45,092 bases of DNA from assembly GCA_033761985.1 (NCBI GenBank), contig JANRMB010000292.1, positions 1-45,092 on the forward strand, given 5' to 3'. This stretch comes from Candidatus Sumerlaeia bacterium. Lineage in GTDB: Bacteria > Sumerlaeota > Sumerlaeia > SLMS01 > JAHLLQ01. The notes below the pieces were generated by a model. The model was not told the DNA's origin. It searched no databases and saw only the letters and a program-made list of their open reading frames with translations. The first letter of the stretch is position 1; each line of letters begins with the position of its first letter. This document shows positions 2,368-21,913 of this stretch, in pieces. Both the position numbers and the translations under genes were made by a program.

Positions 2368-2418
2368 TCCCCAAAATCTAGCCACCCACCACACATTTTT
2401 TTTTCAGGAGACGACCCC

Positions 2419-3078
2419 ATGTCTATCAGCACCAACGAAGGCGGAAACAACAAGATCCTTCACCCGTTCTATTCCCTGGCCGACTATATGAAGCACGACC
2501 ATTCCGCAGGAACGATTCAGCTCGCCACGGGTGTTCGGGGGATTCAAGTAACGGAGGATTTCATCGTGGGTTTGCAAAGTGGGTTGGAAGAAGAAGTCGG
2601 CGACGCCGCCGGCATGGTAATGTACAAAGCCGGTTTCGAGTGGGGCATGCAGGACATGAAAGCTTTTGAACGCCGCTTTGAGGAAGAATATGGCGGCCGC
2701 ACCAAGATGAGTGAGGCGAACATTATGTTCGTCCTTGAAACTTGGTGGTGGCCCTTGACCAGTGAAGGCTGGGGGACATGGAACATCGATTTTTCTCAAC
2801 GCAAGCAGGGGTTGATCTTTGTGGATCTCTATGATTCCGCTGTGGCAAAGTCTTTGGGGAATATCGGCAAACCGGTTTGCCACATGTATGCGGGTTTGCT
2901 GGCGGGAATTTTCACGTACTTTAGTAAACGTGATCTCTCTTCGATTGAAATTCAATGCTACGCCATGGGCGAGGACTTCTGCAAGTTCCTGATTGGGGGA
3001 GAAAAGCGTGTGAACGCAGCCTCCTTCTGGGTGGAGGAAGGTGCTTCGGCAGATGAAATCCGAAGCAAAGTTTCCTAA
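2419..3078 (+). CDS. V4R (4-vinyl reductase) domain protein
   Basis: GWG motif and PVCHMYAGLLAG...EIQCYAMGEDFCKF Cys pattern typical of V4R; AGGAG RBS upstream. Confidence 0.9.
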   Translation: MSISTNEGGNNKILHPFYSLADYMKHDHSAGTIQLATGVRGIQVTEDFIVGLQSGLEEEVGDAAGMVMYKAGFEWGMQDMKAFERRFEEEYGGRTKMSEANIMFVLETWWWPLTSEGWGTWNIDFSQRKQGLIFVDLYDSAVAKSLGNIGKPVCHMYAGLLAGIFTYFSKRDLSSIEIQCYAMGEDFCKFLIGGEKRVNAASFWVEEGASADEIRSKVS

Positions 3079-3141
3079 TTCGTTTATCCTGTGTCCCCTT
3101 GTAAAATTCACTCTCCGCTTCCAACTTGTTCAAGGTAGCCT

Positions 3142-3774
3142 ATGATGGAAAATCGTCGTCTTCTGGATAACACCCCTGAAATACTCGAATTACTCAAGGC
3201 GCTGTTAGGTCCTCCTACGGGAACGGTCTCTTGGAGTTTGGAAGCAAAGCCGGTTGAATCTAGTGGTTTGCTTTCATCGCAGGGGAACACAATAAAAACT
3301 GTTGGTACTTTGGTGCGCAAAGAGGTTGCCCTGACTCCCGTGCCAGTGGGGGAGAGCCGAGTGGCCAAGGCTGTCCGCCCTGCCGCATCTGCTCCTTCTA
3401 TGAGCACGGAAAAACTGGAAGTTTTGCGGAAGCTCTCTTCGCCTGTTGTGACCTTTTTTCAATCGGTGGAATGGGATGGCTCTCTTTCCCAAGCAACGCT
3501 AAAGACTGCATCCCCCGCCTCTGCCTCCATCCTCGAGGAACCTGCCTCGGATTGGCAAATGGAGGAAGTTGGTGAACTTGTTCTCTCCGTCCCCGTTGCC
3601 GCATTTGTGTCCTCCATTCAATGGGATGGCAAAGGTTCCTACGTACCGCCCAAACCACAAAAAGTGGCGGCCCCAAAACATATCACCGAAACAAACGTTG
3701 CTGCTTTGGTGATGGAACCCGCGCGAGATACAAAATCCGCACAGAATTTGTTCAGTGATTTTGGTTTCGACTAA
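3142..3774 (+). CDS. Hypothetical, largely disordered protein with a twice-repeated F-x-x-S-[VI]-x-WDG motif
   Basis: VVTFFQSVEWDG and VAAFVSSIQWDG repeats; Pro/Ser/Ala-rich linkers; acidic-aromatic C-terminus LFSDFGFD; co-oriented within the operon. Confidence 0.75.
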   Translation: MMENRRLLDNTPEILELLKALLGPPTGTVSWSLEAKPVESSGLLSSQGNTIKTVGTLVRKEVALTPVPVGESRVAKAVRPAASAPSMSTEKLEVLRKLSSPVVTFFQSVEWDGSLSQATLKTASPASASILEEPASDWQMEEVGELVLSVPVAAFVSSIQWDGKGSYVPPKPQKVAAPKHITETNVAALVMEPARDTKSAQNLFSDFGFD

Positions 3775-3827: not shown

Positions 3828-4508
3828 ATGTCTCACTCCTCTGTCCCCGTTTTGGCCGATGAACTTGTCCCCAATTGCTTCGACTCGGAAAGCTATCTCA
3901 AACTCGATCTCCGCACAGGAGTGATTCGCAATCGATTTGGGACAAAATGTATCCTCATGTCGGGCTTCCTCCTTCGCGGGATTTACATCGGACTCAAAAA
4001 CGAAACTGGTCCCGCATGGAAGCTTATTCTGCGGAGTTGCGGAGAAGCTTGGGGTGCGAAGTTTACCGAGCGTTTTATGAAAGAAATTGAAGAGTTCTAC
4101 GGTCAAAACATGAACGAGATGAGCATGGCGCGGTTCAAGGCCCTGGTGGAGGAGTATTTCGCCACAGCGGGATGGGGACGCGTCACCGTGGATTTCAGTT
4201 TGATTCACAAAGGGTTGATTCAAATCGAAGTGGAAAATCCCATACTCGGCGATGTTCTTCAGGATGCGGGTGAAAAGTGCGACGTGCTCTTTGAAGGGGT
4301 TTTCAAAAAGCTTTTCTCGAAAGTCTCGGGTCAGCAACTTGAATGCTATGAAACACAGAGTGTGGTTGAAGGTGCGCCATCCTCCATTTTCTTGGTGGGT
4401 CTTGGTAAGCGTTTTGAGGATATGCCCGAGTGGATTGACGAGAAGAAGCTCGGTCACTTGGCAATTATCGAACGCCTCGATCGCGCGGCTTCCGCCACCG
4501 CAAACTAA
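3828..4508 (+). CDS. Second V4R domain protein (partial loss of Cys ligands)
   Basis: DLRTGVIRNRFG, CGEAWG, AGWG motifs; KCDVLFEG...LECYETQS...SSIF where V4R usually has E-x-x-C...C-x-F. Confidence 0.85.
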   Translation: MSHSSVPVLADELVPNCFDSESYLKLDLRTGVIRNRFGTKCILMSGFLLRGIYIGLKNETGPAWKLILRSCGEAWGAKFTERFMKEIEEFYGQNMNEMSMARFKALVEEYFATAGWGRVTVDFSLIHKGLIQIEVENPILGDVLQDAGEKCDVLFEGVFKKLFSKVSGQQLECYETQSVVEGAPSSIFLVGLGKRFEDMPEWIDEKKLGHLAIIERLDRAASATAN

Positions 4509-4550: not shown

Positions 4551-6974
4551 ATGATGCTTCACCTGTTGCCCAAAGAATTGACCGAACGCTACGAGCCGAT
4601 TGATATTCTCGGCTACGGGGCGTTTGCCATGGTGGTAAAGGCCAAGGACATCAAAACCGGTGAATTTGTGGCCATCAAACATTTGCAAACAAAGCAGGGC
4701 GACAAACAAAAATTCTTCCGAGAACTCAACCTTTCCACCCGTCTTCGGCATCCCCACATCGTTCGCTGCTTGGATGTCTACTGTTCATCCGATACCGCCA
4801 GTGACATGGTGTTTGAATTTGCAGATGGTGGTATGTTGCGTACATACCTTGAGGAAGATAAACCCTTCGATTTTTCCGAGGCACTGGCCGTTACTCATCA
4901 GATCGCCCAAGGGCTGGAATATGCGCATCAGGAAGGTGTGGTTCACCGCGATTTGAAACCTGAAAACATCCTTCTTTTTTTGCAGCAAGATCCTGGAAAA
5001 CGACTCTACAAAATCGCTGATTTTGGCGTGGCAAAAATCATCGGTCCCAATCAAAAAACTGCGACCAGTATTGGCTCACCCAGCTATATGGCCCCCGAGC
5101 AGTTTTATGATTCTTATGATATCACCTCCGATATCTATGCGTTGGGTATCATGTTTTACGAACTTCTTCATGGTTCTGTCCCTTTCCAGGGGAGCACTGC
5201 AGAGATTTTCAAAGGCCATCTGGAGGGGACACTCCAGTACCAATCCACTCTTGATCTTGATCTACAACGTCTCATCCATGACATGACCCTGAAGATTCCT
5301 TATGCGCGCCCCAAGGCAAAGGATGTGAAGGAGCGCATTGAATCGATTGCTTCAAAATCAGGAATTCTTTTGCATGACTTCTCGGCAATCTCACAGGTGC
5401 CTTCTTCGAAACAAGAAGTGCAACCAACAGGGACACTCGTATTCGCTGATTTTGAAGAACCTGCTTCGGATCTTCCCAAACCAGATCGTAGTCTTATCGA
5501 GTTGAACCCGGTGAGTTCGCCTGAAACTGCAGAAGAGTCTGAGCCAGTTGATACAACACAAGACAGCGTAGATACTCAGAATGTATCTCTCCCTCTTCTG
5601 GTTGAAGAGGAAGACGAAATCCTGTTCCCAGGCTTCCATGTGGAGGATGTCCCCAAGGTTGAGAGCCAGGAAAAAGAAGAATCCGAAGAAGCAATCTTAT
5701 TCAGTCAGGATGTTCTCACACCACCTGCATCTGAGGTAGAAAAATCAAAAAATAGCTCAAAACCTCCTCTGGAAGAAGAAAGCCTTTTCGATGATTTTCC
5801 AGGAGTAGATCAATCCTCGCATCAAGTCGCGATCAAGAAATCTGATGCCTCAACTGTTCGAGTTCCTGCAATTGTCACGGAAGCAAAAGTCCAACAGGAA
5901 TCCGCGGATGTGTTCTTTGAGGGCTTTGAAGATGAAGAGAAATTTGATCGCACGGAGATCAAGGAAGTCTCAAGTGTGGCGGAAAAAAATCTTAAGCAAT
6001 ATGGTCGCTTTCAAGTGGAGATCAAGTGGTCGCGTGCTGTGGAACGGAAAACAACCGGTCTCCTGAGCTTGGAGGATGGCCAGGATTTGTTGATGGTTAT
6101 TCCAGGCAAGGGTTTGCAGGAGATTAAGCCGGGTGGTTTGAGAGGCGGGATGGTTTACGAAGGGGTCTATGAGGTGCTTGGTCAGCCCGTACTCGGCCAT
6201 GTTTGCATGATTCGGAATCAAACCTTCTGTGTGTTGCAGCGGGGGGAGTTCTATGAGTCAGATTGGAAGTTTGACGATAAAACCACAAGCATCGCCATCT
6301 CCCAGGATCTTTCCACTGTGGCGAGTTTTTCCGGTGCCACTGTTACGTGTCGTCGATGGGGTGGTAAACTGATGTGGACAGGTCAATTCGATCGTACCGG
6401 GAAGGGTATTTTCCTTTCATTGAGTAATGATGGTAATCTCATTATTTGCTCGATTATGGGAGAAGATCAAGCGGTGCACTTTTTTGACGACGAAGGGGAA
6501 AGCCTTGCTCGTTTCTGGATGGATGCTCCCATTGTTTCCGCAGCGGTACACCACGATCGCCTTGGTGTATGGGTGATTGTTGCTGATTCTGATGAAGTCT
6601 GCACTCTCTACAACGTGACGCAACACCACAAACGCCCAGTGTGTGCCTTGGAAAAACCCCTTCACAACTTGAAGGCTAGTCGGGATTGGCTTGCTGGATT
6701 CGATGACGAGAACCGACTTCACTTGGTTGATTTGAGTATTGGGTTGGTAATGCCCGTGGAAGAAGTAACTGGGACACCTCTCGATATCTGTGTCGGAAAA
6801 TCCCTCAACGAATTGTACGTTCTCACCACACGTGATCAAGTAATGCGCTATGTCACTGGTATTGAAATCGGTCTTCGGGACTCAGAGTCCCGGGTTGTGA
6901 CCAAACTCGATCAATCTGAAAAACCCACTCTTTCCAATCGTTCGAATGAATCGGAGGCCTTGTTCAGTAAATGA
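4551..6974 (+). CDS. Ser/Thr protein kinase with acidic linker and C-terminal beta-propeller-like domain
   Basis: GYGAFA loop, VAIK, HRDLKPEN, DFG, GSPSYMAPE, DIYALG; last ~300 aa show repeated beta-strand units (SIAISQDLSTVASF, FLSLSNDGNLII); no TM helix seen. Confidence 0.93.
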   Translation: MMLHLLPKELTERYEPIDILGYGAFAMVVKAKDIKTGEFVAIKHLQTKQGDKQKFFRELNLSTRLRHPHIVRCLDVYCSSDTASDMVFEFADGGMLRTYLEEDKPFDFSEALAVTHQIAQGLEYAHQEGVVHRDLKPENILLFLQQDPGKRLYKIADFGVAKIIGPNQKTATSIGSPSYMAPEQFYDSYDITSDIYALGIMFYELLHGSVPFQGSTAEIFKGHLEGTLQYQSTLDLDLQRLIHDMTLKIPYARPKAKDVKERIESIASKSGILLHDFSAISQVPSSKQEVQPTGTLVFADFEEPASDLPKPDRSLIELNPVSSPETAEESEPVDTTQDSVDTQNVSLPLLVEEEDEILFPGFHVEDVPKVESQEKEESEEAILFSQDVLTPPASEVEKSKNSSKPPLEEESLFDDFPGVDQSSHQVAIKKSDASTVRVPAIVTEAKVQQESADVFFEGFEDEEKFDRTEIKEVSSVAEKNLKQYGRFQVEIKWSRAVERKTTGLLSLEDGQDLLMVIPGKGLQEIKPGGLRGGMVYEGVYEVLGQPVLGHVCMIRNQTFCVLQRGEFYESDWKFDDKTTSIAISQDLSTVASFSGATVTCRRWGGKLMWTGQFDRTGKGIFLSLSNDGNLIICSIMGEDQAVHFFDDEGESLARFWMDAPIVSAAVHHDRLGVWVIVADSDEVCTLYNVTQHHKRPVCALEKPLHNLKASRDWLAGFDDENRLHLVDLSIGLVMPVEEVTGTPLDICVGKSLNELYVLTTRDQVMRYVTGIEIGLRDSESRVVTKLDQSEKPTLSNRSNESEALFSK

Positions 6975-7744
6975 CTCAAATGATCGGCATATTGAGAACT
7001 CCATCATCACTTCCCGCCAACACGCTCTCGTTGAATATCGGTGCAGCCTTGGCGCAACGGGGCAGCCAAGTGCTTCAGCTTCTACAGGGGCAAAGCGCGA
7101 CTGTATCACAAACCGCCTACCCACGGCTTTCCAAACTTCAGGGGGGGACGGACCAATTGATGACAGGCGATGCCTCACTACAAAGTGCTCTGTCACCCTT
7201 CAATTGGGTGGTGTATGAAGTGCAGTCTGATTGGGCTCCTGCCAGTATCAGCCTTCTTGCCTCAAAAGCAACGCATCTGATTCTCGCCTATGAGGAGTCT
7301 TCTCTGTCACTCAACGCTCTTCCTCAATTGCTACAACCTCTGGCGAAGCTCAAGGCAGAAAACAAGTGTCCCCAAATCACCAACTTTTTAGTCACCAAAG
7401 AAAACAGCGCAGCGGAGAATTTAAAGAAATTCGATGCGGCGTGTGGTACGTTTGCCACCATCAAATCCTTGTATCCTGGCATACATAGTCTCCCAACGAT
7501 TACTCATGATCCCGATTTGATTTCTTCATCGATGAAGGAAACGACTGTCTTGGCTCAAAACCCTCTTTCCAAAGATGCCGAGGTATTCCGAACGCTTGCC
7601 ACACAACTCGCTCCCGGAACCGAAGGTGATGCTGTGGTTCGTCGTTCTCTGAAACGGCACATGGCTGGCAAACCTCCAGCAGTTGATTCATTTTTCGACA
7701 AGTTGTTCGATCAAATTGGGCAACTCTTCGGTGGCTCAAAGTAA
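6971..7744 (+). CDS. MinD/ParA-like protein with degenerate Walker A
   Basis: N-terminus IGILRTPSSLPANTLSLNIGAALAQRGSQVL follows the ParA/MinD pattern but lacks KGGxGKT; VLAQNPLSKDAEVFRTLA resembles the ParA C-terminal region; amphipathic tail SFFDKLFDQIGQLFGG; ATGA overlap with the kinase. Confidence 0.7.
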   Translation: MTQMIGILRTPSSLPANTLSLNIGAALAQRGSQVLQLLQGQSATVSQTAYPRLSKLQGGTDQLMTGDASLQSALSPFNWVVYEVQSDWAPASISLLASKATHLILAYEESSLSLNALPQLLQPLAKLKAENKCPQITNFLVTKENSAAENLKKFDAACGTFATIKSLYPGIHSLPTITHDPDLISSSMKETTVLAQNPLSKDAEVFRTLATQLAPGTEGDAVVRRSLKRHMAGKPPAVDSFFDKLFDQIGQLFGGSK

Positions 7745-7802: not shown

Positions 7803-10691
7803 ATGGACTTCACACTTCAGGAACTCATCGATAAAACGCGTCAACGGTTGATGACCGATCAGGAGATTGTGCTCGCGGAACGTAGGGCCCGGCGGATGGA
7901 ATTAGGAATTGCTTCTCTTGAACGTTGGCAACAAGTGGAAAGCACCCTCATTCCCGCTGCGATCAAAAAAGCTGCGGATGAGTCCGGTGTCAGTGATCCT
8001 GCAATCATTTCCACGTTTGATGAAATCCTTCGGGTGATTCTTCGTCAGGTGGCGTTTGCCAGTGGGAGTGATGATGCGACACGATTGGTGAAAAATCTTG
8101 AGTCTGTTCACCGGGCCTTTTGGAAGTCACCCGTCCCCACCGCATTTGTTTCTTTGAGCTTTGAGCATCTTCGTGATGCACTTAAGAAATCCTTCCCAGT
8201 GGCGGAGTTCAATCAACTTGATCGCATGATTCGGCTGGAGCAACTCAGCCTTGTCTCGTTGTGTTCTTTTGCCGGAATTCAGGAATCATTAATTCGCCAG
8301 AGCTTGGATGATCTCTTCAAATTGAATAGCAAATGGGAAGTGCAGGATGCTTCGTTGCGTCGTCGGCTTCAACAGTTTGCCGAAACATTGATGCAGTTCA
8401 GTGCTCGAGCCCTGCTTCCTGAAGGAGGCGGACCTCTCGCAGATCTCATCGCCCGCACGAATGAAAAAATCAAACGAGATCGTCTGTTTGCCATGGCGAT
8501 TGTTGAGTTGTTGGGTTTGATGATGGGGATGATGCGTTCTCGGGAACTCAACCGTTATCATCTTAAGACAAATCATCTTTGGTTGGAAGTTCAACGTTCC
8601 TTAAAAGTTGCGTTGGTGTTGAACCAAACACGCGATGCCATTAGCCAAAGTGTTTGGAAGAAACTTTCGGATGAATTTCGCAATGGGTTTGAGGACCTCA
8701 AAGAAGCGGAAAAGGCCATCAAGCAGGATTCGTATGAGTTGCTTGCGGCGTGTGTCATTTTGTTGACTCCCTCGGGGACAGAGAAGTTTCACAAGGCAGT
8801 ATTGGAAGTTGATCGCCGCATTTACCGCTACAAATTCCAGGAAGCAATTGTTCAGAGATGGTTGCATCTTCTACAGGAAGAGTCTGCTCGTATCATGGGT
8901 GCGGAGGCCTTCGGTGATATTGCAGAAACTCTGGAGCAATCTTGTACCTTCATTCTAGTAGCCGGTGATTTTGCCACCAAACGTGCTCAAATCCTTGTCG
9001 ATGTAGCCCAAAAGCTTGCCGATGAATTCCCTGAAGTCTTCGAACGCAAAGCACGCTACTTAAGCTACGTGATTCGCGACCACGAGGCGCTTCTGGATTC
9101 CGTTTATCAGACACTACTTCCCCAATCAGAACTAACTACCCTTGGGCGTATTGCCATTTTTGGTGATGTTCTGATAGCGGATAAGTTTCCCAAAAAACTG
9201 ATGTTCCGTTCCTTTGAATTACTCGAAGCGGCTGTGGCGGAGCGTTTCACTGATCGAGTTGCAGGTGTACTTCAACCCCGCTTGGAAGCCATCATGCGCT
9301 ATCTACGGGTGTGTGTGGAACTCGCCACCACCGAAGAGAAAATCCTCAAAGATGCAACCGAACCCATTCTTGCCCAATACAAGGATAAAATCTCCTCCTT
9401 CAAGAATGGCGAAACAAAAGTTCGCCGCGACGCGCGTACTTTCTTTCGTTCAGCTCTTGCTTCCATCATTCCGGGCAATGAGTACGATCTCACTTGGGGG
9501 CACGATGTTTTGTTTGAAACGCTTCAAGATCGCCAGTTTGACGAAGCGATGATGAATGCTCATATCAACAGCCTCATAGCCTCTGTAAAATCCAATTTGG
9601 ATGCGGAAACCTGTGCTTGGCTGGTTCCAATACTGGATCGCTGCCGCAAGTTCACCGTGGCTGCTTCAGCCCTCGCCTCCAAGGAAGAAAAAATCATCGA
9701 TCAAACGGTGAAAACGGTTTTGGAAAAGCATCCCCATATTGCTCTTTCCCATGCCTCCGCTTCACGTCACCTCTCTCGTGATTTCTCTCGTTTATTCCGA
9801 TTCTCCCTGCTTTCCCTTTTCCAAAAGGGTCAGGAGAAAATGGCTCACAACCTCGATATCTTCTACGATGTTATTGTCTCCGAGGAGTTGAGTGTTTCCT
9901 ACATTCGTGATTGTTATGAGGGGATCCGCAACGCTGTTAAGATAAACCTGAATGCCGATGCCGCATCCATTTGGATGGAAGTTCTGAACCCATCGTGTCA
10001 GGCAATTATTACCACCGCCGAAGTGATTGATCGGGCTCCCACTTTTGAAGGAATCCTCTCCTCACAAACAGCTGAACTCTCCGCTAACGACAAAGCCCAA
10101 CTTGCAACCATTACGAGGCTTTGTCTTCAAGCAGGTGCATTAACCAGTTTCCGCGGGGGACAGGTCAACTTTGCACGCGAACTTCGGAAAGAGGGACTGA
10201 AGCTTGCCGCCCACGAAACACTTACTCCGGAAATAATCTGGAAAGTATTGAGCGAGCTGCATTTGGGTGCTCAAAACTTCTTGGAAGGTGAGTCACGCAA
10301 CCTGATCGCCAACGCCTTTCAATCGGCGAGGGATTATCTGTCCCTTCAATCCAAAGTATCCCGCATGGAGTTGGAACTATTGAAAGTTGCTGTGGAGAAG
10401 GCACGCGCCAAAGGGACAGGTCCCTCCCTTCCTCAAAACATCTTCCAGCAAGATGGTCGTTATCTGCTTCAGGCGGCCCTGCTGTCACTCATCCCAGGGT
10501 GTGATGAAAGCTGCACTCAGATTCGGCAAACCCTTTCCACCATCTATCGCCACCATCGCCAAGGTAATCACGGTGTGATCACCTCCACCTTGGAACACAT
10601 GAAGGCAACGTTCCAGCAGGAAGTGAAGGTGGGTCCTGTGGGGACACTAAACGCTCATCTTGATTCGTTCGCCAAATCACTTGCCGCTTGA
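7803..10691 (+). CDS. Large all-helical protein of tandem phycobiliprotein-like (globin-fold) domains
   Basis: 962 aa with an exact 117-aa periodicity (D309/D426/D543/D660; P206/P323/P440/P557); repeat 6 aligns almost without gaps to the downstream 156-aa phycobiliprotein-like protein. Confidence 0.8.
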   Translation: MDFTLQELIDKTRQRLMTDQEIVLAERRARRMELGIASLERWQQVESTLIPAAIKKAADESGVSDPAIISTFDEILRVILRQVAFASGSDDATRLVKNLESVHRAFWKSPVPTAFVSLSFEHLRDALKKSFPVAEFNQLDRMIRLEQLSLVSLCSFAGIQESLIRQSLDDLFKLNSKWEVQDASLRRRLQQFAETLMQFSARALLPEGGGPLADLIARTNEKIKRDRLFAMAIVELLGLMMGMMRSRELNRYHLKTNHLWLEVQRSLKVALVLNQTRDAISQSVWKKLSDEFRNGFEDLKEAEKAIKQDSYELLAACVILLTPSGTEKFHKAVLEVDRRIYRYKFQEAIVQRWLHLLQEESARIMGAEAFGDIAETLEQSCTFILVAGDFATKRAQILVDVAQKLADEFPEVFERKARYLSYVIRDHEALLDSVYQTLLPQSELTTLGRIAIFGDVLIADKFPKKLMFRSFELLEAAVAERFTDRVAGVLQPRLEAIMRYLRVCVELATTEEKILKDATEPILAQYKDKISSFKNGETKVRRDARTFFRSALASIIPGNEYDLTWGHDVLFETLQDRQFDEAMMNAHINSLIASVKSNLDAETCAWLVPILDRCRKFTVAASALASKEEKIIDQTVKTVLEKHPHIALSHASASRHLSRDFSRLFRFSLLSLFQKGQEKMAHNLDIFYDVIVSEELSVSYIRDCYEGIRNAVKINLNADAASIWMEVLNPSCQAIITTAEVIDRAPTFEGILSSQTAELSANDKAQLATITRLCLQAGALTSFRGGQVNFARELRKEGLKLAAHETLTPEIIWKVLSELHLGAQNFLEGESRNLIANAFQSARDYLSLQSKVSRMELELLKVAVEKARAKGTGPSLPQNIFQQDGRYLLQAALLSLIPGCDESCTQIRQTLSTIYRHHRQGNHGVITSTLEHMKATFQQEVKVGPVGTLNAHLDSFAKSLAA
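8250..10007 (+). repeat. Degenerate protein-level tandem repeat, period 117 aa (351 nt)
   Basis: Aligned motifs AIKQDSYELL / VIRDHEALL / VRRDARTFF / LSRDFSRLF spaced exactly 117 aa; LLP/LTP/LLP/IIP also spaced 117 aa; further degenerate units flank it (FQQDGRYLL..LIP). Confidence 0.8.
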
Positions 10692-10734: not shown

Positions 10735-11205
10735 ATGAATACAGCACTTCGTCAACTAAGCCAGGAATTACTGACTCGTCCGATTCAAGGAGCAGACCTG
10801 CAACTCCTCAAAAGCCATAGCCAAAAGATTCGCGTTGGTGCTTCTGCTGCCATCCAATTCAAGGATGCCCAAGGAATCATTATTGATCGCACGGTACGCG
10901 AAATTTACAAAAAATACCCCGATAAGCTAAATCAATATCGCGACTGTGAAGCTAAAACCGCTCGCGATATGCACCTTGTGATTGGTTATTGTGTTTATTC
11001 TCTTCTTCTGGATGACCCCGATTATGCCAAGGAGCGGATGTTGTATTGGTTTCGAACTGTTTTGAAAAACTATGAGTTCGGTGATAGCTTCATCGCCGAT
11101 TGCTACACCATCCTCAAGAGTCATATTGCAAAGTATCTTGAAGAGCAGGAAGCGGTGATGATGAATCACATGGTGGATGAATCTATCGCCATTTTTGTCA
11201 GCTAA
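10735..11205 (+). CDS. Phycobiliprotein/allophycocyanin-like globin-fold protein (Slr0149-like) lacking the canonical bilin-binding Cys
   Basis: IIDRTVREIYKKYP...KTARDMHLVIGYCVYSLLLDDPDYAKERMLYW parallels the phycobiliprotein C-x-RD...LRY..YA.L.GD....ER.L segment; AGGAG RBS supports ATG 10735. Confidence 0.82.
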   Translation: MNTALRQLSQELLTRPIQGADLQLLKSHSQKIRVGASAAIQFKDAQGIIIDRTVREIYKKYPDKLNQYRDCEAKTARDMHLVIGYCVYSLLLDDPDYAKERMLYWFRTVLKNYEFGDSFIADCYTILKSHIAKYLEEQEAVMMNHMVDESIAIFVS

Positions 11206-11244
11206 ACTCCTGAATCGTATGGATCAGATTTGTTGGAATCTTTC

Positions 11245-13083
11245 ATGAGCAATTCCATTGCACCGGAACTCGCAGAAGTACTGCAGGAACTTGGGATTAT
11301 CTCCAAGTCCGGCCTAGAGGAAGCTCTCTTCGAAGCCGAACAGCAGGACGTTTCTGTTTGGCGTCTGCTGAAACAGCAACAGATTCTCACTCCCAAACAA
11401 GCCGATACGTTGGATATGTGCGAAAAAGGGTATATCCCCATCAAGGTTGCACGAATTACTCTGTCCATGGAACTGAAACAAAATGTTCAGAAACCCAATC
11501 CAACCAAAACAGTGCCGGCAGATACACAGGAAACCGTCAAGCAGGTTGTAAAGAGAAACGAAACACCTGCAAACTCTCCCAAGCAGGCTGTTTCGGTGCA
11601 GTCTCAAACCCCAAATTTGGATTCCTCTTCGGCTCATGTGATTGGACAGATTATCGGCGAAAAGAAGTTTGGCAACTACCTCAAAACTCCCTTACCCACT
11701 GCATCTGCCAATCAGCCCAAACCGGATCCGGTTGCTCTTAAGTCTCCCACACCGCTGCCACATTCAACTGAACCTTTTCTCGATGAGCTTTCGCCCTTAC
11801 CGCTGGATTCAACCTATGAGGAAAAGGTTGTGTACACCCCGGAACCTGAATCTAGGACTGAGGTGGAAGCTGAAGAATCCAATTCCCTCGGAAGTTCTTC
11901 GATTATTGAAAAACTCCGCGTTTTAGATCAGCGTAGCAATTCACCAACTCCAGTTGCACAGGAAGAAAGTAGCCTTCCATCCATGCAACCCTCCACAATT
12001 CAGCAGGTGTTCCCCAAGCCGCCGGAGTTTCTTTCCAACGGTGTGGAAAAGTTTACTCCGCAGCGTAAAAATCGCCCACTGAGTACCGTAGCAGGTCCTC
12101 TGTCCCCCAGTACCAACTCCAGCACCCAGCAGAAGTCTCGTCAGAAAACTGACCTCTCCTATCTTGTGGGGAGAAAAATTGGAAAGTTTCAACTCAGCAC
12201 CCAACTCGGAAAGGGGTCTGCTGGAACCGTGTTCCTTGCCCACCACGCCTCGTTGAACATGCCGGTCGCGATCAAAATTCTGGATCCTTTCCTTGCAAAG
12301 CAACACCCGGAACTTATCCATCGGTTCATGCTGGAGGCCAGTTCTGCCGCTCGAATTAACCACCCCAACGTCATACGTGTGCTCGACTGCGATCATGTGG
12401 ACGGATTTCATATCATCGTAATGGAGTATGTGGACGGCATTTCTCTTTCTGAACTGATCCAAATGAATGGGGCACTTTCTGAAGATCGAGGTTTGAAGTA
12501 TATTCTCTCCGTTGCTGAAGGATTGGAAGCCGCTTATCAGGTCGGTATCGTTCACCGCGATATCAAACCAGCGAACATCCTTATCACAAAAACCAAGCAA
12601 GTTCGTATTGCCGATATGGGCCTTGCACGAGCAATCAAAGATAACTCCATGGCCGATACCGCTCAGGGTGTTGGGCTCGGAACCCCCCAGTATTTCCCAC
12701 CTGAACAAGCCCGAGACGCCGCCAGTGTCGATCATCGGTCAGACATTTATGCCCTGGGAGTCACTCTGTACGTGGTTCTCTCTGGTGAACTCCCCTTCAA
12801 GGCCAAAACCTTGAGTGAACTTATCTACCAGCACGAAAACGAGTATGCCATTCCCCTCAATGTTGTGAATCCTTCCATCACCCAACGCACAACAAATCTG
12901 GTGATCACCATGATGCAAAAACACCCAAGTGATCGCTACCAATCCTATGAGGCCTTGATTCAGGCGATTCAATCCTGCATCGTGGAATGCCAAACCAAGT
13001 CCGAGGATATGGGTTCCGGTACAAGCAGATCAAGCTTCTCCATGCTCAACAAACTTGGAAACTTCTTTAATCGCAAAACTTGA
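11245..13083 (+). CDS. Ser/Thr protein kinase with N-terminal MshEN-like helical domain and Pro/Ser/Thr-rich linker
   Basis: GKGSAG, VAIK, HRDIKPAN, DMG, GTPQYFPPE, DIYALG; N-terminal LAEVLQELGIISKSGLEEAL; start may be TTG 11230. Confidence 0.93.
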   Translation: MSNSIAPELAEVLQELGIISKSGLEEALFEAEQQDVSVWRLLKQQQILTPKQADTLDMCEKGYIPIKVARITLSMELKQNVQKPNPTKTVPADTQETVKQVVKRNETPANSPKQAVSVQSQTPNLDSSSAHVIGQIIGEKKFGNYLKTPLPTASANQPKPDPVALKSPTPLPHSTEPFLDELSPLPLDSTYEEKVVYTPEPESRTEVEAEESNSLGSSSIIEKLRVLDQRSNSPTPVAQEESSLPSMQPSTIQQVFPKPPEFLSNGVEKFTPQRKNRPLSTVAGPLSPSTNSSTQQKSRQKTDLSYLVGRKIGKFQLSTQLGKGSAGTVFLAHHASLNMPVAIKILDPFLAKQHPELIHRFMLEASSAARINHPNVIRVLDCDHVDGFHIIVMEYVDGISLSELIQMNGALSEDRGLKYILSVAEGLEAAYQVGIVHRDIKPANILITKTKQVRIADMGLARAIKDNSMADTAQGVGLGTPQYFPPEQARDAASVDHRSDIYALGVTLYVVLSGELPFKAKTLSELIYQHENEYAIPLNVVNPSITQRTTNLVITMMQKHPSDRYQSYEALIQAIQSCIVECQTKSEDMGSGTSRSSFSMLNKLGNFFNRKT

Positions 13084-13101: not shown

Positions 13102-13446
13102 ATGATTGAGTCTGACTTCATTTGTGCGGATTGCGGCGAGGCTCAGTCCGTTCGTCATAGCATCAAGGAGAAGCCCCTTCCAATTTGCCCAGCTTGCCAA
13201 ACACCCATGGAAAGACTCGTCGCCGGGGGGAGTCACTCCTTGATCAAAGGCGGAAAAGTGGATTCAAAGGTGGCCAAAGTCGTTACCGATAAAGACCGTG
13301 CTGATATGGATCATGCCCGAACCGTTGCACAGAATATCAAATCCTTCGCCCAGCCAAAAACTCAGGAAGCATTCCTTAAACGGGAATCAATCAAAGGCGA
13401 GACACAACCGGCGATACCTGCAAAGCGGACTCGCAAACCCCACTAA
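13102..13446 (+). CDS. FmdB-family zinc ribbon protein
   Basis: CADCG...CPAC...MERLV pattern; 18 bp downstream of the kinase. Confidence 0.8.
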   Translation: MIESDFICADCGEAQSVRHSIKEKPLPICPACQTPMERLVAGGSHSLIKGGKVDSKVAKVVTDKDRADMDHARTVAQNIKSFAQPKTQEAFLKRESIKGETQPAIPAKRTRKPH

Positions 13447-13523: not shown

Positions 13524-16433
13524 TTGGAAAAGTCTGTCGCCTTGGAGGGGAGTACCCCTACCACACCCCATTCCGAATACCGCAAAATTCTCCCGGAACT
13601 GCTTCTGATCACAATCGTTGCGGCTATCCTGAGGTTTTTGTTCCTCGATCGTCCAGATTTGTGGATGGATGAAGTACGCGTGTATTTTGATGCCATCCGC
13701 GGCACCAATGAAGTCGTCAGTGATGCGCACCGAGTCCACTTGGGAATTCTGGGATGGTTGTTGAACAATATATCGGATTCTCCATGGATGCTTCGGTTCT
13801 GGGGAGCATTAGCCGGTACGTTGGCGGTTCCAATTATGGCGCTAACGGCCTACCTTTTAGGTGGGCGCCCTCTATTCCGGGTTTGTGGATTTCTGGCGGC
13901 CTTCAGCCCATTTCTCGTCTTCTACTCGCGGGATGCAAACTACTATGGGCCCATGACGTTTTTTGCATCACTCCAACTCCTCTGTATTGCCCTCTTTGTC
14001 TGTAAGCAACGGGTCCTTTCCGTTATCCTGCTTTGTCTAACAGCGGTCATCACTCATTACAATCACCCGTTTGCATCGATCCATTCGGTTGTATCCATTT
14101 CGATTGTTGGGCTCCTGACACTTGTGGATTTATGGAATCACCGAGCCCATTTGATGAAGTATCTTTCCACCAAAGGGGTGGTTTTTTTGGTGATTGGGTT
14201 CCTCCTTTTTGCCGGTTTGCTGGTGTTTGTGGGAAAAGGATATTCTCAAACATTTGGTGTTTTGCAGGATAAATTCAGTTTTGGTAAACCCTTGGCGAAT
14301 GTTTCCCTCACTCCAACGTTCTTCTATCAACTCTTCACCTCCCTTTTAGTTGTTCATGTTCCTGTACAAGGCTATGAAACAGTCTCACGTTTCTTGGGTT
14401 TGATCCCGTTTGTCCTGGCGATCTTCGGAGTGTTTCAGGTCGTGAGAAGTTTCCTTCAGAGACTTCAGGGAGCCAGTGATTCCTCAAATCACCAAAACGG
14501 AATCGCCCAAATCGCCGTTGTTGGAGTAATCCTTCTCAGTCTGATTCTGGCGTTGTTTGTCATTTTCAATGTGAGTTATCGTACGTTCTACCCCCGGTAT
14601 TTTAGCTTCCTTGTTCCTGGAGGAATGCTTTGCGTTGCCCTTGGAATCTGCTCCTTGAGCTCTTTTGCAGGGAAGTCTTTTCGTTCCGAATACCTCCTCG
14701 CACCCATCCTCCTATTTTACGCTTTTCAACTCACTCCGCATTATTCTCCCAAAGCTGCAAACTTTAAGCTTCTGGACGAGTATGTGGAAAATGAATCCAC
14801 AGAAGATTCACGAGTCTTTTTCCCGGTGAATGAGGAACTCTCCCAGGCCCTCTTTTACTTCAATAGCGAGCAACTGGAAGCCTTTATTCTCCACCACCTT
14901 CGCCCCTCACTCAAACACTCCGCACGCAACTGGCTCAGCCTCTATCTTTATGGAAGAAAGGATGTCATCGTTGCATCCGCATGGCGCCATGCACCACTCG
15001 GTGAATTCTGGACACACTTGGACGCCATTACGGAAACAGTCGTCGCTGGAACTTCTGTTCACGGTCCTGAACAAAATGCCCGCGTTTATCACTGGAAAAC
15101 GGCAGACCGCGCCCTGCTCCCCAATATCGCCACCCGATTTGAATACGGTCCGGGAACGAATACAGTCGTCGTTGATGAGGGACACTGGAAGCTCCATGGT
15201 GACTCGAAATTAATCGACCAACTGAAATCCCGATTCTCCTCCAGCACTCCAGATTCCGTGCAAAACTCGGCTTCTGTACTTTACTCCTTTGATGCCCAGT
15301 CATCAGGAACTCTTCTCGCACTTCCGGTCATCCCAGAAAAATTGGATTTAGGTCCATTTGGTCACTATAATTTGACCAATGACACCCGGAACAAAGAAGG
15401 CATTTTGGTGGATGGAAAGGTCATCGTCCCCGGAGATTTTGAGGAGGAGCCTGAAGGGGAACCCGTCTTCCAGATGGCCTTTGATGGAGTCTTCAATTAC
15501 GTAATCTATCAACCCGCAAATGAACAACGCCATCTTGTTTTCAAGCGCTTTTGTTCAGCCGAACCTCTCCCCAAAGGCCATGGAAAGAACACATTCCTCT
15601 ACGAAGTCGCCGTGAATGGTGTACACCAGGGAATCTACCCGAGTGAGGATAAACCCGGCGAATGGGTGGAGACTCAGATAGATCTCGTGCTCCCTCCCGG
15701 TAATCAAAATGTTATGGTCTACGCCACCAAGATACGCCTCAATGATCCCTTCCATGATTGGATCTGGGGTGGTACTGAATGGAATCAGGGTCCTGCTACA
15801 AAACCCACGCTTCCCGTGCCCGATTCGTTACTGACAAAAATTCCTGATTCCTCTCCCTTCATTTGGGGCGAACCGGGTGCCGTGAATTTATCACCTCAAT
15901 TTGTACCCACCGCACCTCATTACAATCGCCACGTTTCCTCTGAGCGTACTGGCCCCAGTGGTAGTAAAGCTCTTCTATTCACCTTCAACGGAAATTATTC
16001 TCACGCCAAGGAAGTTTACTCCCAAACCTTCACCAAACCCATCCCCGTTCGCGAGGGGCAACTCTTCGTGTACTCCACCTTCATTCGAAATGAGTACGCC
16101 AAAGATTACGCCGCATCACTGATGAATCTCTTCCTCGATGCTAACGGCAAATCCATGGGGGCAACCCAAGGCAAGCAACAGCACTCCACTTATCCCCAAG
16201 CCCAACGTTGGGTACGTTACGTGGAGATTGTGCAAATCCCCAAAGGATGCGCCTACTTTGCTCCCGGCGTTTTTGTGTACCCACCAGACCCCGCCAAAAC
16301 CAAACAACAAGGCCGCTTCATGCTGGATGCGATTACCCCCGCCACGGGGCAGGAAGGGCCATTCACTCCCGGTTATCTTACGCCAGCGCTCTTCTTTGAT
16401 CCGGAACAGGCTCTCTCAGAACTCAACTCATGA
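13524..16433 (+). CDS. GT-C (PMT/GT39-like) membrane glycosyltransferase with large C-terminal extracytoplasmic region
   Basis: LRF...DLWMDE motif after TM1, SPFLVFYSRDANYY, about 10-12 hydrophobic helices in the first ~410 aa, PRYF motif, then ~550 aa beta-rich soluble region. Confidence 0.8.
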   Translation: MEKSVALEGSTPTTPHSEYRKILPELLLITIVAAILRFLFLDRPDLWMDEVRVYFDAIRGTNEVVSDAHRVHLGILGWLLNNISDSPWMLRFWGALAGTLAVPIMALTAYLLGGRPLFRVCGFLAAFSPFLVFYSRDANYYGPMTFFASLQLLCIALFVCKQRVLSVILLCLTAVITHYNHPFASIHSVVSISIVGLLTLVDLWNHRAHLMKYLSTKGVVFLVIGFLLFAGLLVFVGKGYSQTFGVLQDKFSFGKPLANVSLTPTFFYQLFTSLLVVHVPVQGYETVSRFLGLIPFVLAIFGVFQVVRSFLQRLQGASDSSNHQNGIAQIAVVGVILLSLILALFVIFNVSYRTFYPRYFSFLVPGGMLCVALGICSLSSFAGKSFRSEYLLAPILLFYAFQLTPHYSPKAANFKLLDEYVENESTEDSRVFFPVNEELSQALFYFNSEQLEAFILHHLRPSLKHSARNWLSLYLYGRKDVIVASAWRHAPLGEFWTHLDAITETVVAGTSVHGPEQNARVYHWKTADRALLPNIATRFEYGPGTNTVVVDEGHWKLHGDSKLIDQLKSRFSSSTPDSVQNSASVLYSFDAQSSGTLLALPVIPEKLDLGPFGHYNLTNDTRNKEGILVDGKVIVPGDFEEEPEGEPVFQMAFDGVFNYVIYQPANEQRHLVFKRFCSAEPLPKGHGKNTFLYEVAVNGVHQGIYPSEDKPGEWVETQIDLVLPPGNQNVMVYATKIRLNDPFHDWIWGGTEWNQGPATKPTLPVPDSLLTKIPDSSPFIWGEPGAVNLSPQFVPTAPHYNRHVSSERTGPSGSKALLFTFNGNYSHAKEVYSQTFTKPIPVREGQLFVYSTFIRNEYAKDYAASLMNLFLDANGKSMGATQGKQQHSTYPQAQRWVRYVEIVQIPKGCAYFAPGVFVYPPDPAKTKQQGRFMLDAITPATGQEGPFTPGYLTPALFFDPEQALSELNS

Positions 16434-17383
16434 ACCATTTTCTCCACGTTGGTGATCTCCACTTCTCCCGGTTTCCCAATCGATTGGCGGATTGGCGTGG
16501 AAAGCGCCTGCTCGGACTGCTGAATCTGGCACTCAATCGCAGAAAAGCTTTTCACCTGTCCCTTGCCTCCATCCTGATTGCCAAGCTTCAGGAGCAACTC
16601 CAACAACAATCCACTCACCTCCTCTGTTCCGGAGATTTTTCCACCACTTCCCTTCCCCAGGAATTTGGAGATGCTCTTCACCATTTCTCGCCATTGCGTC
16701 ACTCCGGGGCCACGTTCATGGCCGTACCTGGAAACCATGATCGCTACAATGGATTCGATTTTCGGCGACAGACCATGCTTAAGTCCCTTGTGTCTCCACT
16801 GTCCCCGTTTATCCAAAGCTGGCCCTTCCATTTTCTCACACCCGATCAAACTGTCTGTATTATTGGAATCGATGCCACCACTCGAAATGGAATCGGTTCC
16901 CACGGATTCTTTCGTGATGCTGACTACTTGAAATCTCTTCTCCAAAAACGACTCCCCAACACGGTAAAACAACTCATTTTCCTCTGTCACTTTCCGGCCG
17001 AATCACCCACCTCATTACTCCATCGAGATCGTGGCGAACAGCTTCGAAACAGTTCCTCCCTGTTGTCGATTCTTGAACAATTCCCAATCCCCACTTTGTT
17101 TTGTCACGGGCATTTTCACCAACGGTGGATCTGGCAAAGCCCCAGAATTCCACATCTTACCTACCTTAATGCAGGCGCACCGATGCTGCGCCTTTCCCAG
17201 CCCGGCAAAACGACCAAAGAAGCAGATCTGGGATTTTTCGAATTCGAGTCCAACCCAACGATTCAATCCATACGGCTGCATCGTCTCAAACTCAGCAACA
17301 CCAACATGGTCTGGAATTTCTCAGATCATCCCCTTCCTCAGAACTCCCAACCGATTGACTTACGGTCCATTGCTCTGGGTTGA
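16430..17383 (+). CDS. Calcineurin-like metallophosphoesterase
   Basis: GDLH, GDFS, PGNHD, CHFP, HGHFH motifs; ATGA overlap with the GT-C gene. Confidence 0.9.
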   Translation: MNHFLHVGDLHFSRFPNRLADWRGKRLLGLLNLALNRRKAFHLSLASILIAKLQEQLQQQSTHLLCSGDFSTTSLPQEFGDALHHFSPLRHSGATFMAVPGNHDRYNGFDFRRQTMLKSLVSPLSPFIQSWPFHFLTPDQTVCIIGIDATTRNGIGSHGFFRDADYLKSLLQKRLPNTVKQLIFLCHFPAESPTSLLHRDRGEQLRNSSSLLSILEQFPIPTLFCHGHFHQRWIWQSPRIPHLTYLNAGAPMLRLSQPGKTTKEADLGFFEFESNPTIQSIRLHRLKLSNTNMVWNFSDHPLPQNSQPIDLRSIALG

Positions 17384-19208: not shown

Positions 19209-19298
19209 AAAGTCGACAAACAACGGCGAATCAAATACTGGAGAGTCTCGTCTTTCTTCGGTCGTTTGGCAACTCCAGCTTTCATCTCCTGCTGCAAC

Positions 19299-21131: not shown

Positions 21132-21913
21132 GGTGTTTTCTCCAATTGGATTTAAACCCATGGTAGAGAACTTCTTTTCCCCCAACAACTGTTTAATGAT
21201 TTACAAAAAAGTTACCTACCGCACTTCAAACCACCTAAAGTAGATAACAATCGTAGTTTAATATACAGCTTTTTCTCAACCCAACAGTTAACCATTATCT
21301 CACAATACAAAAATTCAAAAATTCGTGAATCAATAATCAGTTTTTTGAAAAATGCGAAGGATTAATTTCTCCAAGATTTTCAACCCAGCAGTTGTTCCTC
21401 ACAGAGCACACTTTTTTCTCCTGGCAGTTGAACAACCTTCTTCGATCAAAAATCGTCACATAACAAATCATGTTCAAGTTCTGAAGAAGTTCAATTTCTT
21501 CTCGAGATATAGAGTGCAAGTATAGCAATATCAGCAATCTAAAAAAACCTGAAGGAGTTACAAATCTGCAACCCCGTTATTCTTGGTGTTTTGTCTAGTT
21601 TTTGATTCGATTTCTCTCAATTTCCGCGGCCGTGGTTTTCTCGATCATTGACAACAAAATCCTGCATCAACTCTCCGTATGGAGGAGTATCAAGGACGCA
21701 TTTTGTACTATTTGAGGCTTTTGAAACGCATTATGACCAACTTCCAGTTCAGTGCAGCCACCAATAACTCAAAATCAGAATTTTCAAAGAAAAATACAGA
21801 AGCTTGCATCCGTGCCGGATAATATTTTTTTCAGACAGTAAAAATTATCTCCACAGATGAGGTTTTTTCAGGATTCCTTTCATCATCTGGATGAGAAAAA
21901 ACTGTTTCAGAAG

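Follow-up and report, generated by a model that had tools for sequence, protein, structure and literature searches.

Rockwell et al. 2023 (PMC10151467) placed the roots of phycobiliproteins among the bilin-binding globins of heterotrophs. According to the main text of that study, these phycobiliprotein paralogues, termed bilin biosynthesis-associated globins (BBAGs), share their gene clusters with pre-PcyA reductases, an Fe-S protein, and a pair of V4R proteins, joined in some cases by a haem oxygenase; several of them bind bilins without lyases, BBAG-1 and BBAG-3 carry a CXRD motif while BBAG-2 has a different one, and the members characterised so far have a low fluorescence yield. In Synechocystis, the BBAG/V4R/Fe-S cluster adjoins genes that include the kinase gene spkG (PMC10151467, main text). 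Here we describe a related locus from a Candidatus Sumerlaeia bacterium (assembly GCA_033761985.1, contig JANRMB010000292.1, positions 1 to 45,092, forward strand; this stretch of 45,092 nucleotides (nt) is called the window below). The subject of this report is a protein of 962 amino acids (aa) encoded in the window, a chain of eight phycobiliprotein-like globin units that we name octaglobin. From sequence comparison and structure prediction, we class octaglobin as a new form of BBAG/phycobiliprotein-like globin, with eight domains, whose gene cluster is of the BBAG type but enlarged by two kinases.

As here, BBAGs are phycobiliprotein paralogues of non-photosynthetic bacteria that are encoded with Fe-S proteins, V4R proteins, and a ferredoxin-dependent bilin reductase (FDBR), and the single-domain globin encoded directly downstream of octaglobin, which we call monoglobin, resembles an ordinary BBAG member. 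The expected gene context is found in the window, where Fer2 and V4R families are matched above their cut-offs and a second V4R protein is matched only weakly, and the association with a reductase is found in related genomes, where an FDBR gene is adjacent (G042) or in the same cluster (G045). This context, a BBAG-type bilin cluster with two Ser/Thr kinases, is what gives octaglobin its meaning, and it was missed by an earlier reading of the DNA made from its letters alone (the sequence-only reading). Whereas the main text of PMC10151467 treats BBAGs as single globins, the locus described here has eight fused globins, lacks the Cys of the CXRD motif, and includes two Ser/Thr kinases. The terms "tandem," "multidomain," and "Sumerlae" are absent from the main text of PMC10151467, whose supplementary globin trees might include multi-domain sequences, and "tandem," "kinase," and "Sumerlae" are absent from the main text of a 2026 preprint (10.64898/2026.05.08.723791). 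A literature search on Sumerlaeota and phycobili* returned only unrelated papers.

In phycobiliproteins, the X/Y helices mediate pairing between the alpha and beta subunits. The alpha-beta "monomer" of allophycocyanin or phycocyanin shares with octaglobin and monoglobin the same fold, X/Y helices on both partners, and an aligned RD motif; unlike that pair, one partner here heads a 962-aa chain, there is no equivalent of the attachment Cys84, and no photosynthetic apparatus was found in the genome. No lyase genes were seen in the octaglobin cluster. The ApcE core-membrane linker is another long protein in which an N-terminal phycobiliprotein-like domain is followed by repeated modules of ∼120 aa. 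The N-terminal domain of ApcE, which has no canonical Cys, forms a pair with a beta-type subunit. ApcE chains match residues 2-210 of the octaglobin model at Z 10.4-11.4 (VIA-align), but the ApcE repeats are linker (REP) domains rather than globins, and no linker family was matched in octaglobin by Pfam.

Chains of many globins are known from other proteins. Artemia haemoglobin is eukaryotic and haem-binding, and its domains are joined by linkers. Like octaglobin, it carries many globin domains in one polypeptide, nine in its case (PMC1865544), whereas octaglobin has no conserved His and has continuous helices between its units. Photoglobin domains are described as "stand-alone or multiply linked" in PMC8717448. 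Photoglobins and photocobilins are, like units 2-8 of octaglobin, non-haem globins without X/Y helices that are tied to signalling proteins. They differ in having a CXQD motif and a B12-binding partner domain; octaglobin has no Cys at the motif, and no B12-binding domain was found in the cluster proteins scanned. By fold, unit 6 of octaglobin is also less like photoglobins and photocobilins (Z 9.5-9.7) than phycobiliproteins (Z 13.0). The sequence-only reading knew of no described architecture of this kind. This view has to be narrowed, since the nine-globin chains of Artemia and multiply linked photoglobins are known.

The octaglobin gene (7803-10691, plus strand) is an open reading frame (ORF) with an ATG start. 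All residues singled out by the sequence-only reading are at the positions it gave (D309, D426, D543, D660, and D884; P206, P323, P440, P557, and P898), the residues three positions before each Asp are I, V, V, L, and F as it claimed, and four successive spacings are exactly 117 residues. The chain begins with the X/Y helices (aa 1-31) and unit 1 (aa 32-148), which together form a complete phycobiliprotein-type domain by VIA-align (7803-8246) and hold four of the five columns that are invariant in the family. These are followed by unit 2 (aa 149-265, 8247-8597), which matches other units at hhalign probabilities of 95.6-99.0%; unit 3 (aa 266-382, 8598-8948), placed by hhalign, with model residues 259-395 resembling globin and RsbR domains at Z of about 10; unit 4 (aa 383-499, 8949-9299), the most conserved globin core, with R425-D426; unit 5 (aa 500-616, 9300-9650), with R542-D543 and a match to PF00502 that is in register (E 0.073); and unit 6 (aa 617-733, 9651-10001), with R659-D660, which is the unit matching Pfam and the one that was also modelled singly. 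Unit 7 (aa 734-845, 10002-10337) lacks a conserved Asp in the family consensus and matches other units at 95.5-99.0%. Unit 8 (aa 846-962, 10338-10688), with Q883-D884, is placed by hhalign, and its region of the model resembles globins (residues 837-962) and photocobilin 8j2w_B (residues 815-962, Z 8.6). Units 1-6 and 8 are each 117 aa long, and unit 7 has 112 aa.

As a test of the internal repeat, an alignment of 19 full-length octaglobin family members (A2) was cut into eight unit sub-alignments, which were compared all against all by hhalign (28 pairs). In 27 of the 28 comparisons the probability was 94.2-99.5% (score 44.5-121.5), mostly with positions 1-117 of one unit aligned to 1-117 of the other; the sole weak pair was units 1 and 4 (9.2%, score 21.3). 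Controls reached at most 0.4% (score 12.4) with column-shuffled targets and at most 40.7% (score 26.6) with reversed targets. The repeat is therefore far above its controls, and both the 117-aa periodicity and the statistically significant internal repeat on which the sequence-only reading depended are borne out. At the DNA level, only weak repeat matches of 23-24 nt are left in the gene, which argues that the duplications are old. The one remnant of duplication in the DNA itself is a 23-nt match with 83% identity (9322-9344 versus 9673-9695), whose two copies lie at the start of units 5 and 6 with a spacing of precisely 351 nt, or 117 codons. When 40 units drawn from five genomes were placed in one tree together with four monoglobins, grouping was by position: unit 1, unit 4, unit 5, and the monoglobins each formed one supported clade, and 12 label changes were needed, compared with a minimum of 8 and an average of 32.5 in shuffles. 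The eightfold structure is thus old, having arisen before the five genomes under comparison diverged.

An AlphaFold2 model of octaglobin based on A2 is an all-helical chain with a mean predicted local distance difference test score (pLDDT) of 90.4 and a predicted TM score (pTM) of 0.88. Its long helices span residues 133-174, 254-291, 367-408, 484-525, 601-642 (kinked), 718-755, and 829-870, and a helix of ∼42 residues thus recurs each 117 residues. The register of the Pfam match identifies each long helix as a helix H that continues into helices A/B of the following unit, leaving no room for linkers. In the model, octaglobin is a rigidly concatenated chain whose helices are continuous between units, in agreement with the covalent concatenation of globin folds that had been proposed.

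When the whole model was compared with 48,161 chains by VIA-align, about 46 of the 50 matches listed were globin-fold proteins. Model residues 2-151 align with entire phycobiliproteins, X/Y helices included, at Z 10.4-11.5, with phycoerythrin 1b8d_A (residues 2-164) giving Z 11.5 and a root-mean-square deviation (rmsd) of 3.1 over 150 aligned residues; an ApcE domain (4xxi_A) matches the model at Z 11.2, and model residues 610-738 match the DosC globin at Z 11.9. We also folded unit 6 alone on an alignment of 40 units (A3), which gave a pLDDT of 94.5. Its best VIA-align match was far-red allophycocyanin (8or7_A, residues 37-156; Z 13.0, rmsd 2.8, 116 of 117 residues aligned), and 49 of the 50 matches listed were natural globin-fold chains. 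By Foldseek, 40 of the 41 matches listed for unit 6 were phycobiliproteins or the allophycocyanin-derived smURFP, with probability 0.99-1.00 and TM 0.60-0.77. The whole-model Foldseek matches, which were solenoid proteins at TM of about 0.1, were set aside as uninformative for a multi-domain chain. Because VIA-align Z values below about 13 are common for helical proteins, the fold call rests on the consistency of these matches together with the sequence evidence.

Both the whole model and unit 6 alone thus predict a series of globin folds, as the sequence-only reading had anticipated, and its structural inference is supported by these models and by the sequence comparisons. Units 2, 4, 5, and 7 probably share the globin fold, judging from the hhalign results and the periodic secondary structure. 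The further claim that only the first unit carries X/Y helices also agrees with the structural matches: model residues 2-151 lie on residues 2-164 of phycoerythrin, while unit 6 lies on residues 37-156 of allophycocyanin, and units 2-8 begin at the equivalent of phycobiliprotein residue 37, without the X/Y hairpin.

The relationship of the units to phycobiliproteins is likewise seen in sequence searches. Of the Pfam families, PF00502 (Phycobilisome protein) alone exceeds its cut-off in octaglobin (30.3 bits versus 22.2), with residues 620-728 aligned to profile positions 34-148. Among single units, unit 6 scored 21.4 bits (E 2.6e-4) and unit 5 had the E value given above, while the six remaining units had no PF00502 match when taken alone; other units are matched in homologues, for example unit 1 of P0018 (residues 13-147, 49.3 bits). 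A profile of the 40 units gave 35 matches at E ≤ 1 among PDB sequences, 29 of which were phycobiliproteins (best, ApcD, 1.7e-4), and profile positions 2-113 align to PDB chain positions 38-155. The PF00502 match, the PDB matches, and the fold matches agree in upholding the phycobiliprotein relationship.

In phycobiliprotein register, the Asp is kept to different extents across the 19 family members: in 19/19 for unit 4, 14/19 for units 5 and 6, 13/19 for unit 8, 9/19 for unit 3, and 6/19 for unit 2. Unit 7 has no conserved Asp, and unit 1 has Ile at this column. RD is retained in units 4-6. In unit 4, where D426 is present in 19/19 and R425 in 16/19 members, the mean column conservation (0.465) is the highest among the globin cores, and the residue three positions before the Asp is V, T, M, or L across the family. 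Non-covalent bilin binding is possible on this sequence evidence, most plausibly in unit 4. R81-Q82 of unit 1 was considered as an RD equivalent and rejected, as A3 places these residues 6-7 residues past the Asp column and they lie in the predicted interface described below.

Monoglobin (10735-11205, plus strand) is a 156-aa single-domain phycobiliprotein-like protein with X/Y helices (PF00502, 50.6 bits); homologues of 156 aa back the ATG at 10735. It matches phycocyanin alpha (2vjr_A) at E 0.0057, with residues 15-150 on 17-157 and its KTARD opposite KCARD. Thr therefore occupies the position of the attachment Cys84, and an invariant Cys (C71) lies four residues earlier; C71, T75, R77, and D78 are invariant in seven sequences. 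Monoglobin is encoded directly downstream of octaglobin in four of five genomes (G000, the genome studied here, and G039, G042, and G045). When A3 was compared with the monoglobin alignment (A4) by hhalign, the match had a probability of 97.1% and E of 5.8e-11, with unit positions 1-117 on monoglobin 35-152 and the Asp columns aligned, which confirms that repeat 6 and the downstream protein are colinear, as had been proposed.

To predict pairing, residues 1-151 of octaglobin were folded with monoglobin in three runs alongside controls. The scores were 0.78, 0.72, and 0.72 (median 0.72), compared with 0.00, 0.00, and 0.05 for the controls; the mark used for such scores is reached by 58 of 80 solved complexes and by 2 of 110 mismatched pairs. 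The runs had 93% or more of their contacts in common, and the partner pLDDT was at least 89. The predicted interface joins unit 1 residues 9-46 and 77-102 to monoglobin residues 1-43 and 84-91, that is, the X/Y helices and helix E of both chains, which we take to be the alpha-beta interface of phycobiliproteins. R81, which is invariant, and Q82 lie inside it, and conservation is somewhat higher in the octaglobin interface columns (0.52) than elsewhere in residues 1-151 (0.44, permutation p 0.033).

The octaglobin family is rare and conserved, with ∼20 clusters among 1.84 billion cluster representatives. A HMMER search of these representatives yielded 21 proteins with E ≤ 1e-3, of which 14 had values no higher than 1e-30, and almost all of the relatives are 938-983 aa long. 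A word-based search of 5.8 billion clusters found three, namely octaglobin itself and two proteins at 61% identity, one of which is labelled "Sumerlaeia bacterium hypothetical protein"; the named relatives are from Sumerlaeia. Among 75 genomes of the phylum that were compared, full-length octaglobin is present in five, all from one order. The five invariant columns of A2 are R15, G35, E46, and R81 in the X/Y and unit 1 region and D426 in unit 4. No NCBIfam model matched octaglobin, a feature-based search of the ESM Atlas found no cluster resembling it, and a structure-based search of the same resource returned only a single-domain Myxococcota "phycobilisome protein" cluster. Among shorter relatives, P0023 (547 aa) matches PF00502 only at its C terminus (residues 418-538) and P0021 (251 aa) matches it in two stretches; these may be fragments or other multi-globin architectures.

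The gene order from the V4R-like gene to the second kinase is held in G039 and largely in G045. In G045, the cluster encodes Fer2, V4R, a 179-aa protein, V4R-like, a kinase, a ParA/CbiA-type ATPase, octaglobin, monoglobin, and a kinase, and an FDBR gene (57.8 bits) is divergent beside Fer2, about 6 kb from octaglobin. In G042, an FDBR gene (72.9 bits) lies between those of monoglobin and the kinase, giving the order octaglobin-monoglobin-FDBR-kinase. FDBR was found in 10 of the 75 genomes, all of the same order, namely in 4/5 with octaglobin and 6/70 without it, although these genomes are related and the statistic is not independent. In the genome studied here, the FDBR gene (86.5 bits) and the haem oxygenase gene (76.4 bits) lie on contigs other than that of octaglobin; contig C239 (locus L003) carries its only FDBR. 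In G040, from a sister genus without octaglobin, a single-domain globin resembling unit 1 (profile positions 3-161) lies about 4 kb from a reductase (contig C61, L010 and L022, 9937-10419 and 14540-15184). This globin is a candidate for the ancestral state and suggests that octaglobin grew from an ordinary BBAG. Contig C17 of G042 (L016) carries a second bilin reductase near another single globin (92733-93305 and 96727-97074), so there are two bilin-type clusters in that genome. The G045 locus (L018) is flanked by genes for a response regulator of the sigma-54-dependent type and for a protein that matches HisKA weakly (5042-6544 and 18773-19762, both minus strand), which hints at further regulatory wiring.

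In the window, octaglobin and monoglobin belong to a set of nine co-directional, closely spaced genes that runs from a 2Fe-2S protein to a second Ser/Thr kinase, all on the plus strand. The first gene (1870-2367) encodes a 165-aa 2Fe-2S ferredoxin-like protein (PF00111 Fer2, 37.4 bits versus a cut-off of 21), and the same gene type heads the G045 cluster. It is followed by a 219-aa V4R-domain protein (2419-3078; PF02830, 66.7 bits versus a cut-off of 31) and by a 210-aa protein of no known family (3142-3774), which had no Pfam or NCBIfam match but shares 42% identity with a homologue in the corresponding position of G039 and showed no similarity by BLASTP to the G045 V4R protein. The next product, of 226 aa (3828-4508), is V4R-like by a weak assignment, with PF02830 below cut-off (E 0.0047, 17.4 bits; 19.1 bits in a genome scan) and a match to the MsvR C-terminal region (E 6e-4); its orthologues at the same position are 75% (G039) and 58% (G045) identical. 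Ser/Thr protein kinase 1 (4551-6974, 807 aa; PF00069, 191 bits, residues 14-261) has a long C-terminal region and is at the same position in G039 and G045. The 257-aa protein encoded between kinase 1 and octaglobin (6971-7744) is possibly a degenerate MinD/ParA-like protein (weak MinD match, E 0.0086); the gene at its position in G045 encodes a clear CbiA/ParA-type ATPase, but BLASTP found no similarity between the 257-aa protein and this ParA-like protein. Ser/Thr protein kinase 2 (11230-13083, 617 aa; PF00069, 169.6 bits) has orthologues after the globin pair in G039, G045, and G042.

Minus-strand ORFs at 2404-3111 and 1828-2394 were rejected as genes, as they had no Pfam matches and a V4R scan led to the real genes on the plus strand. 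They are shadow frames of the V4R and Fer2 genes, respectively, and a longest-ORF annotation would miss both genes. After kinase 2, the window encodes a 114-aa zinc-ribbon protein (13102-13446, plus strand; PF09723, 31.2 bits, below the cut-off of 34.4) with a 41% identical homologue near the G045 cluster. The region at 13524-17383 (plus strand) encodes a 969-aa protein of no Pfam family, whose N-terminal part is hydrophobic by eye, and then a calcineurin-like phosphoesterase; both are conserved beside the cluster in G039. A stretch of ∼0.7 kb at 21188-21914 has no ORF of at least 200 aa and lies in the lowest-GC part of the window (GC fraction 0.383 for 21001-22000, compared with about 0.50 for the window). 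An Rfam scan of the window, including 21188-21914, found no RNA family, and a promoter/terminator scan of the window found fewer sites than in shuffles.

Taken together, we favour, with a probability of roughly 0.55, the reading that octaglobin is an eight-globin BBAG chain whose head pairs with monoglobin, that bilin is held by the complex, and that the two kinases read its state. Under this reading, the X/Y helices would join unit 1 to monoglobin in the manner of alpha and beta phycobiliprotein subunits; a bilin, produced from haem by the action of haem oxygenase and the reductase, would be bound by monoglobin and perhaps also by the Asp-keeping units 4, 5, 6, and 8; and the rigid eight-globin body would act as a sensor or scaffold whose state the two kinases would read out. 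Since the canonical Cys is missing from every unit, octaglobin could bind a bilin only non-covalently or at a site other than the canonical one.

Several observations count against this proposal. The canonical bilin-attachment Cys is present in no unit, and the family has no Cys at that column; among the 19 sequences, columns 36 and 317 are the only ones in which either Cys or His reaches 50%, in each case as Cys (10/19). This rules out both the canonical covalent attachment of bilin and the canonical ligation of haem, and bilin binding is a prediction from homology and gene context. Units 1, 2, and 7 lack the Asp in this protein. Unit 6 Foldseek E values were 0.025-0.2, with none at or below 0.001, and the whole model had no Foldseek match against the PDB at or below 0.001. 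The pairing score may reflect mere likeness to solved alpha-beta phycobiliprotein dimers, and the monoglobin interface is not enriched in invariant columns (6/29 versus 40/156). The reductase and haem oxygenase genes of this genome are outside the octaglobin cluster. Contig C239 is atypical in composition (GC 0.583, where the genome averages 0.534, and a tetranucleotide distance that falls at the 94.7th percentile), and its reductase is only 38% identical to the enzyme of the sister species; this reductase could belong elsewhere, on a mis-binned contig or as a horizontally acquired gene. In G044, which has octaglobin, no reductase was found in a genome that is 85% complete.

The strongest rival, which we regard as possible but clearly less probable, is that octaglobin is a ligand-free scaffold or filament-like body that recruits or spaces the kinases, with bilin confined to monoglobin docked on unit 1; a ParA/MinD-like protein may position such a scaffold. 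Its case draws on the same lack of a conserved Cys or His, on an Asp that is invariant only in unit 4 and kept in 6/19 to 14/19 elsewhere, on the rigidity of the model (pTM 0.88, continuous inter-unit helices), on the peak of conservation in the X/Y and unit 1 region where monoglobin is predicted to dock, and on the ParA-type ATPase gene directly upstream of octaglobin in G045. However, the ParA-like assignment in the window is very weak, and an invariant D426 with R425 at a bilin-contacting position is hard to explain without a ligand. Fold comparison by itself brings in another candidate, as the DosC haem globin (4zva_A) nearly equals allophycocyanin on unit 6 (Z 12.9 versus 13.0) and fold alone therefore cannot tell a phycobiliprotein from other globins. 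A haem-binding polymeric globin that senses O2, NO, or CO, like Artemia haemoglobin or the globin-coupled sensors, would account for this likeness and for the DosC match to the whole model (Z 11.9); it is nevertheless improbable, since there is no conserved proximal His (no His column at 50% in 19 sequences), PF00502 rather than any haem-globin Pfam family is matched, and the cluster is of the bilin type.

We consider it equally improbable that octaglobin is a light-harvesting or energy-transfer rod, a covalent "proto-phycobilisome" that feeds a photosystem or rhodopsin. Phycobiliprotein homology, the predicted alpha-beta-like pairing, and the rigid multi-domain chain are all compatible with such a role, but octaglobin has no Cys for covalent chromophores, neither a reaction-centre gene (PF00124) nor a phytochrome PHY domain was found in this genome, which is 90.5% complete, and the BBAGs characterised in the main text of PMC10151467 have low fluorescence yield. 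The least credible of the alternatives, one we give very little weight, is a generic alpha-helical solenoid whose periodicity mimics globin helices. Whole-model Foldseek did return only solenoids, such as Kap123 and importins (E 0.04 or worse), yet at TM 0.09-0.14 and rmsd above 30 Å, and the domain-level searches and Pfam agree on globins and phycobiliproteins.

The octaglobin locus bears on the origin of phycobiliproteins, of their alpha-beta pair, and of their higher-order assembly, as it combines eight fused globins, a complete X/Y-bearing head, and a second X/Y-bearing globin predicted to dimerise with that head. A bolder version, which we hold to be rather doubtful, is that octaglobin and monoglobin represent a pre-cyanobacterial "proto-rod," a rigid single-chain array of bilin-binding domains with an alpha-beta-type cap that serves as a multi-chromophore light or redox sensor wired to Ser/Thr kinases. 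If this were true, X/Y-mediated alpha-beta pairing and linear stacking would have existed in heterotrophs before phycobilisomes. The locus offers a tractable system for dating heterodimerisation and multi-domain stacking and a natural single-chain multi-globin scaffold, and the inclusion of two Ser/Thr kinases points to signalling as a possible output of BBAG clusters.

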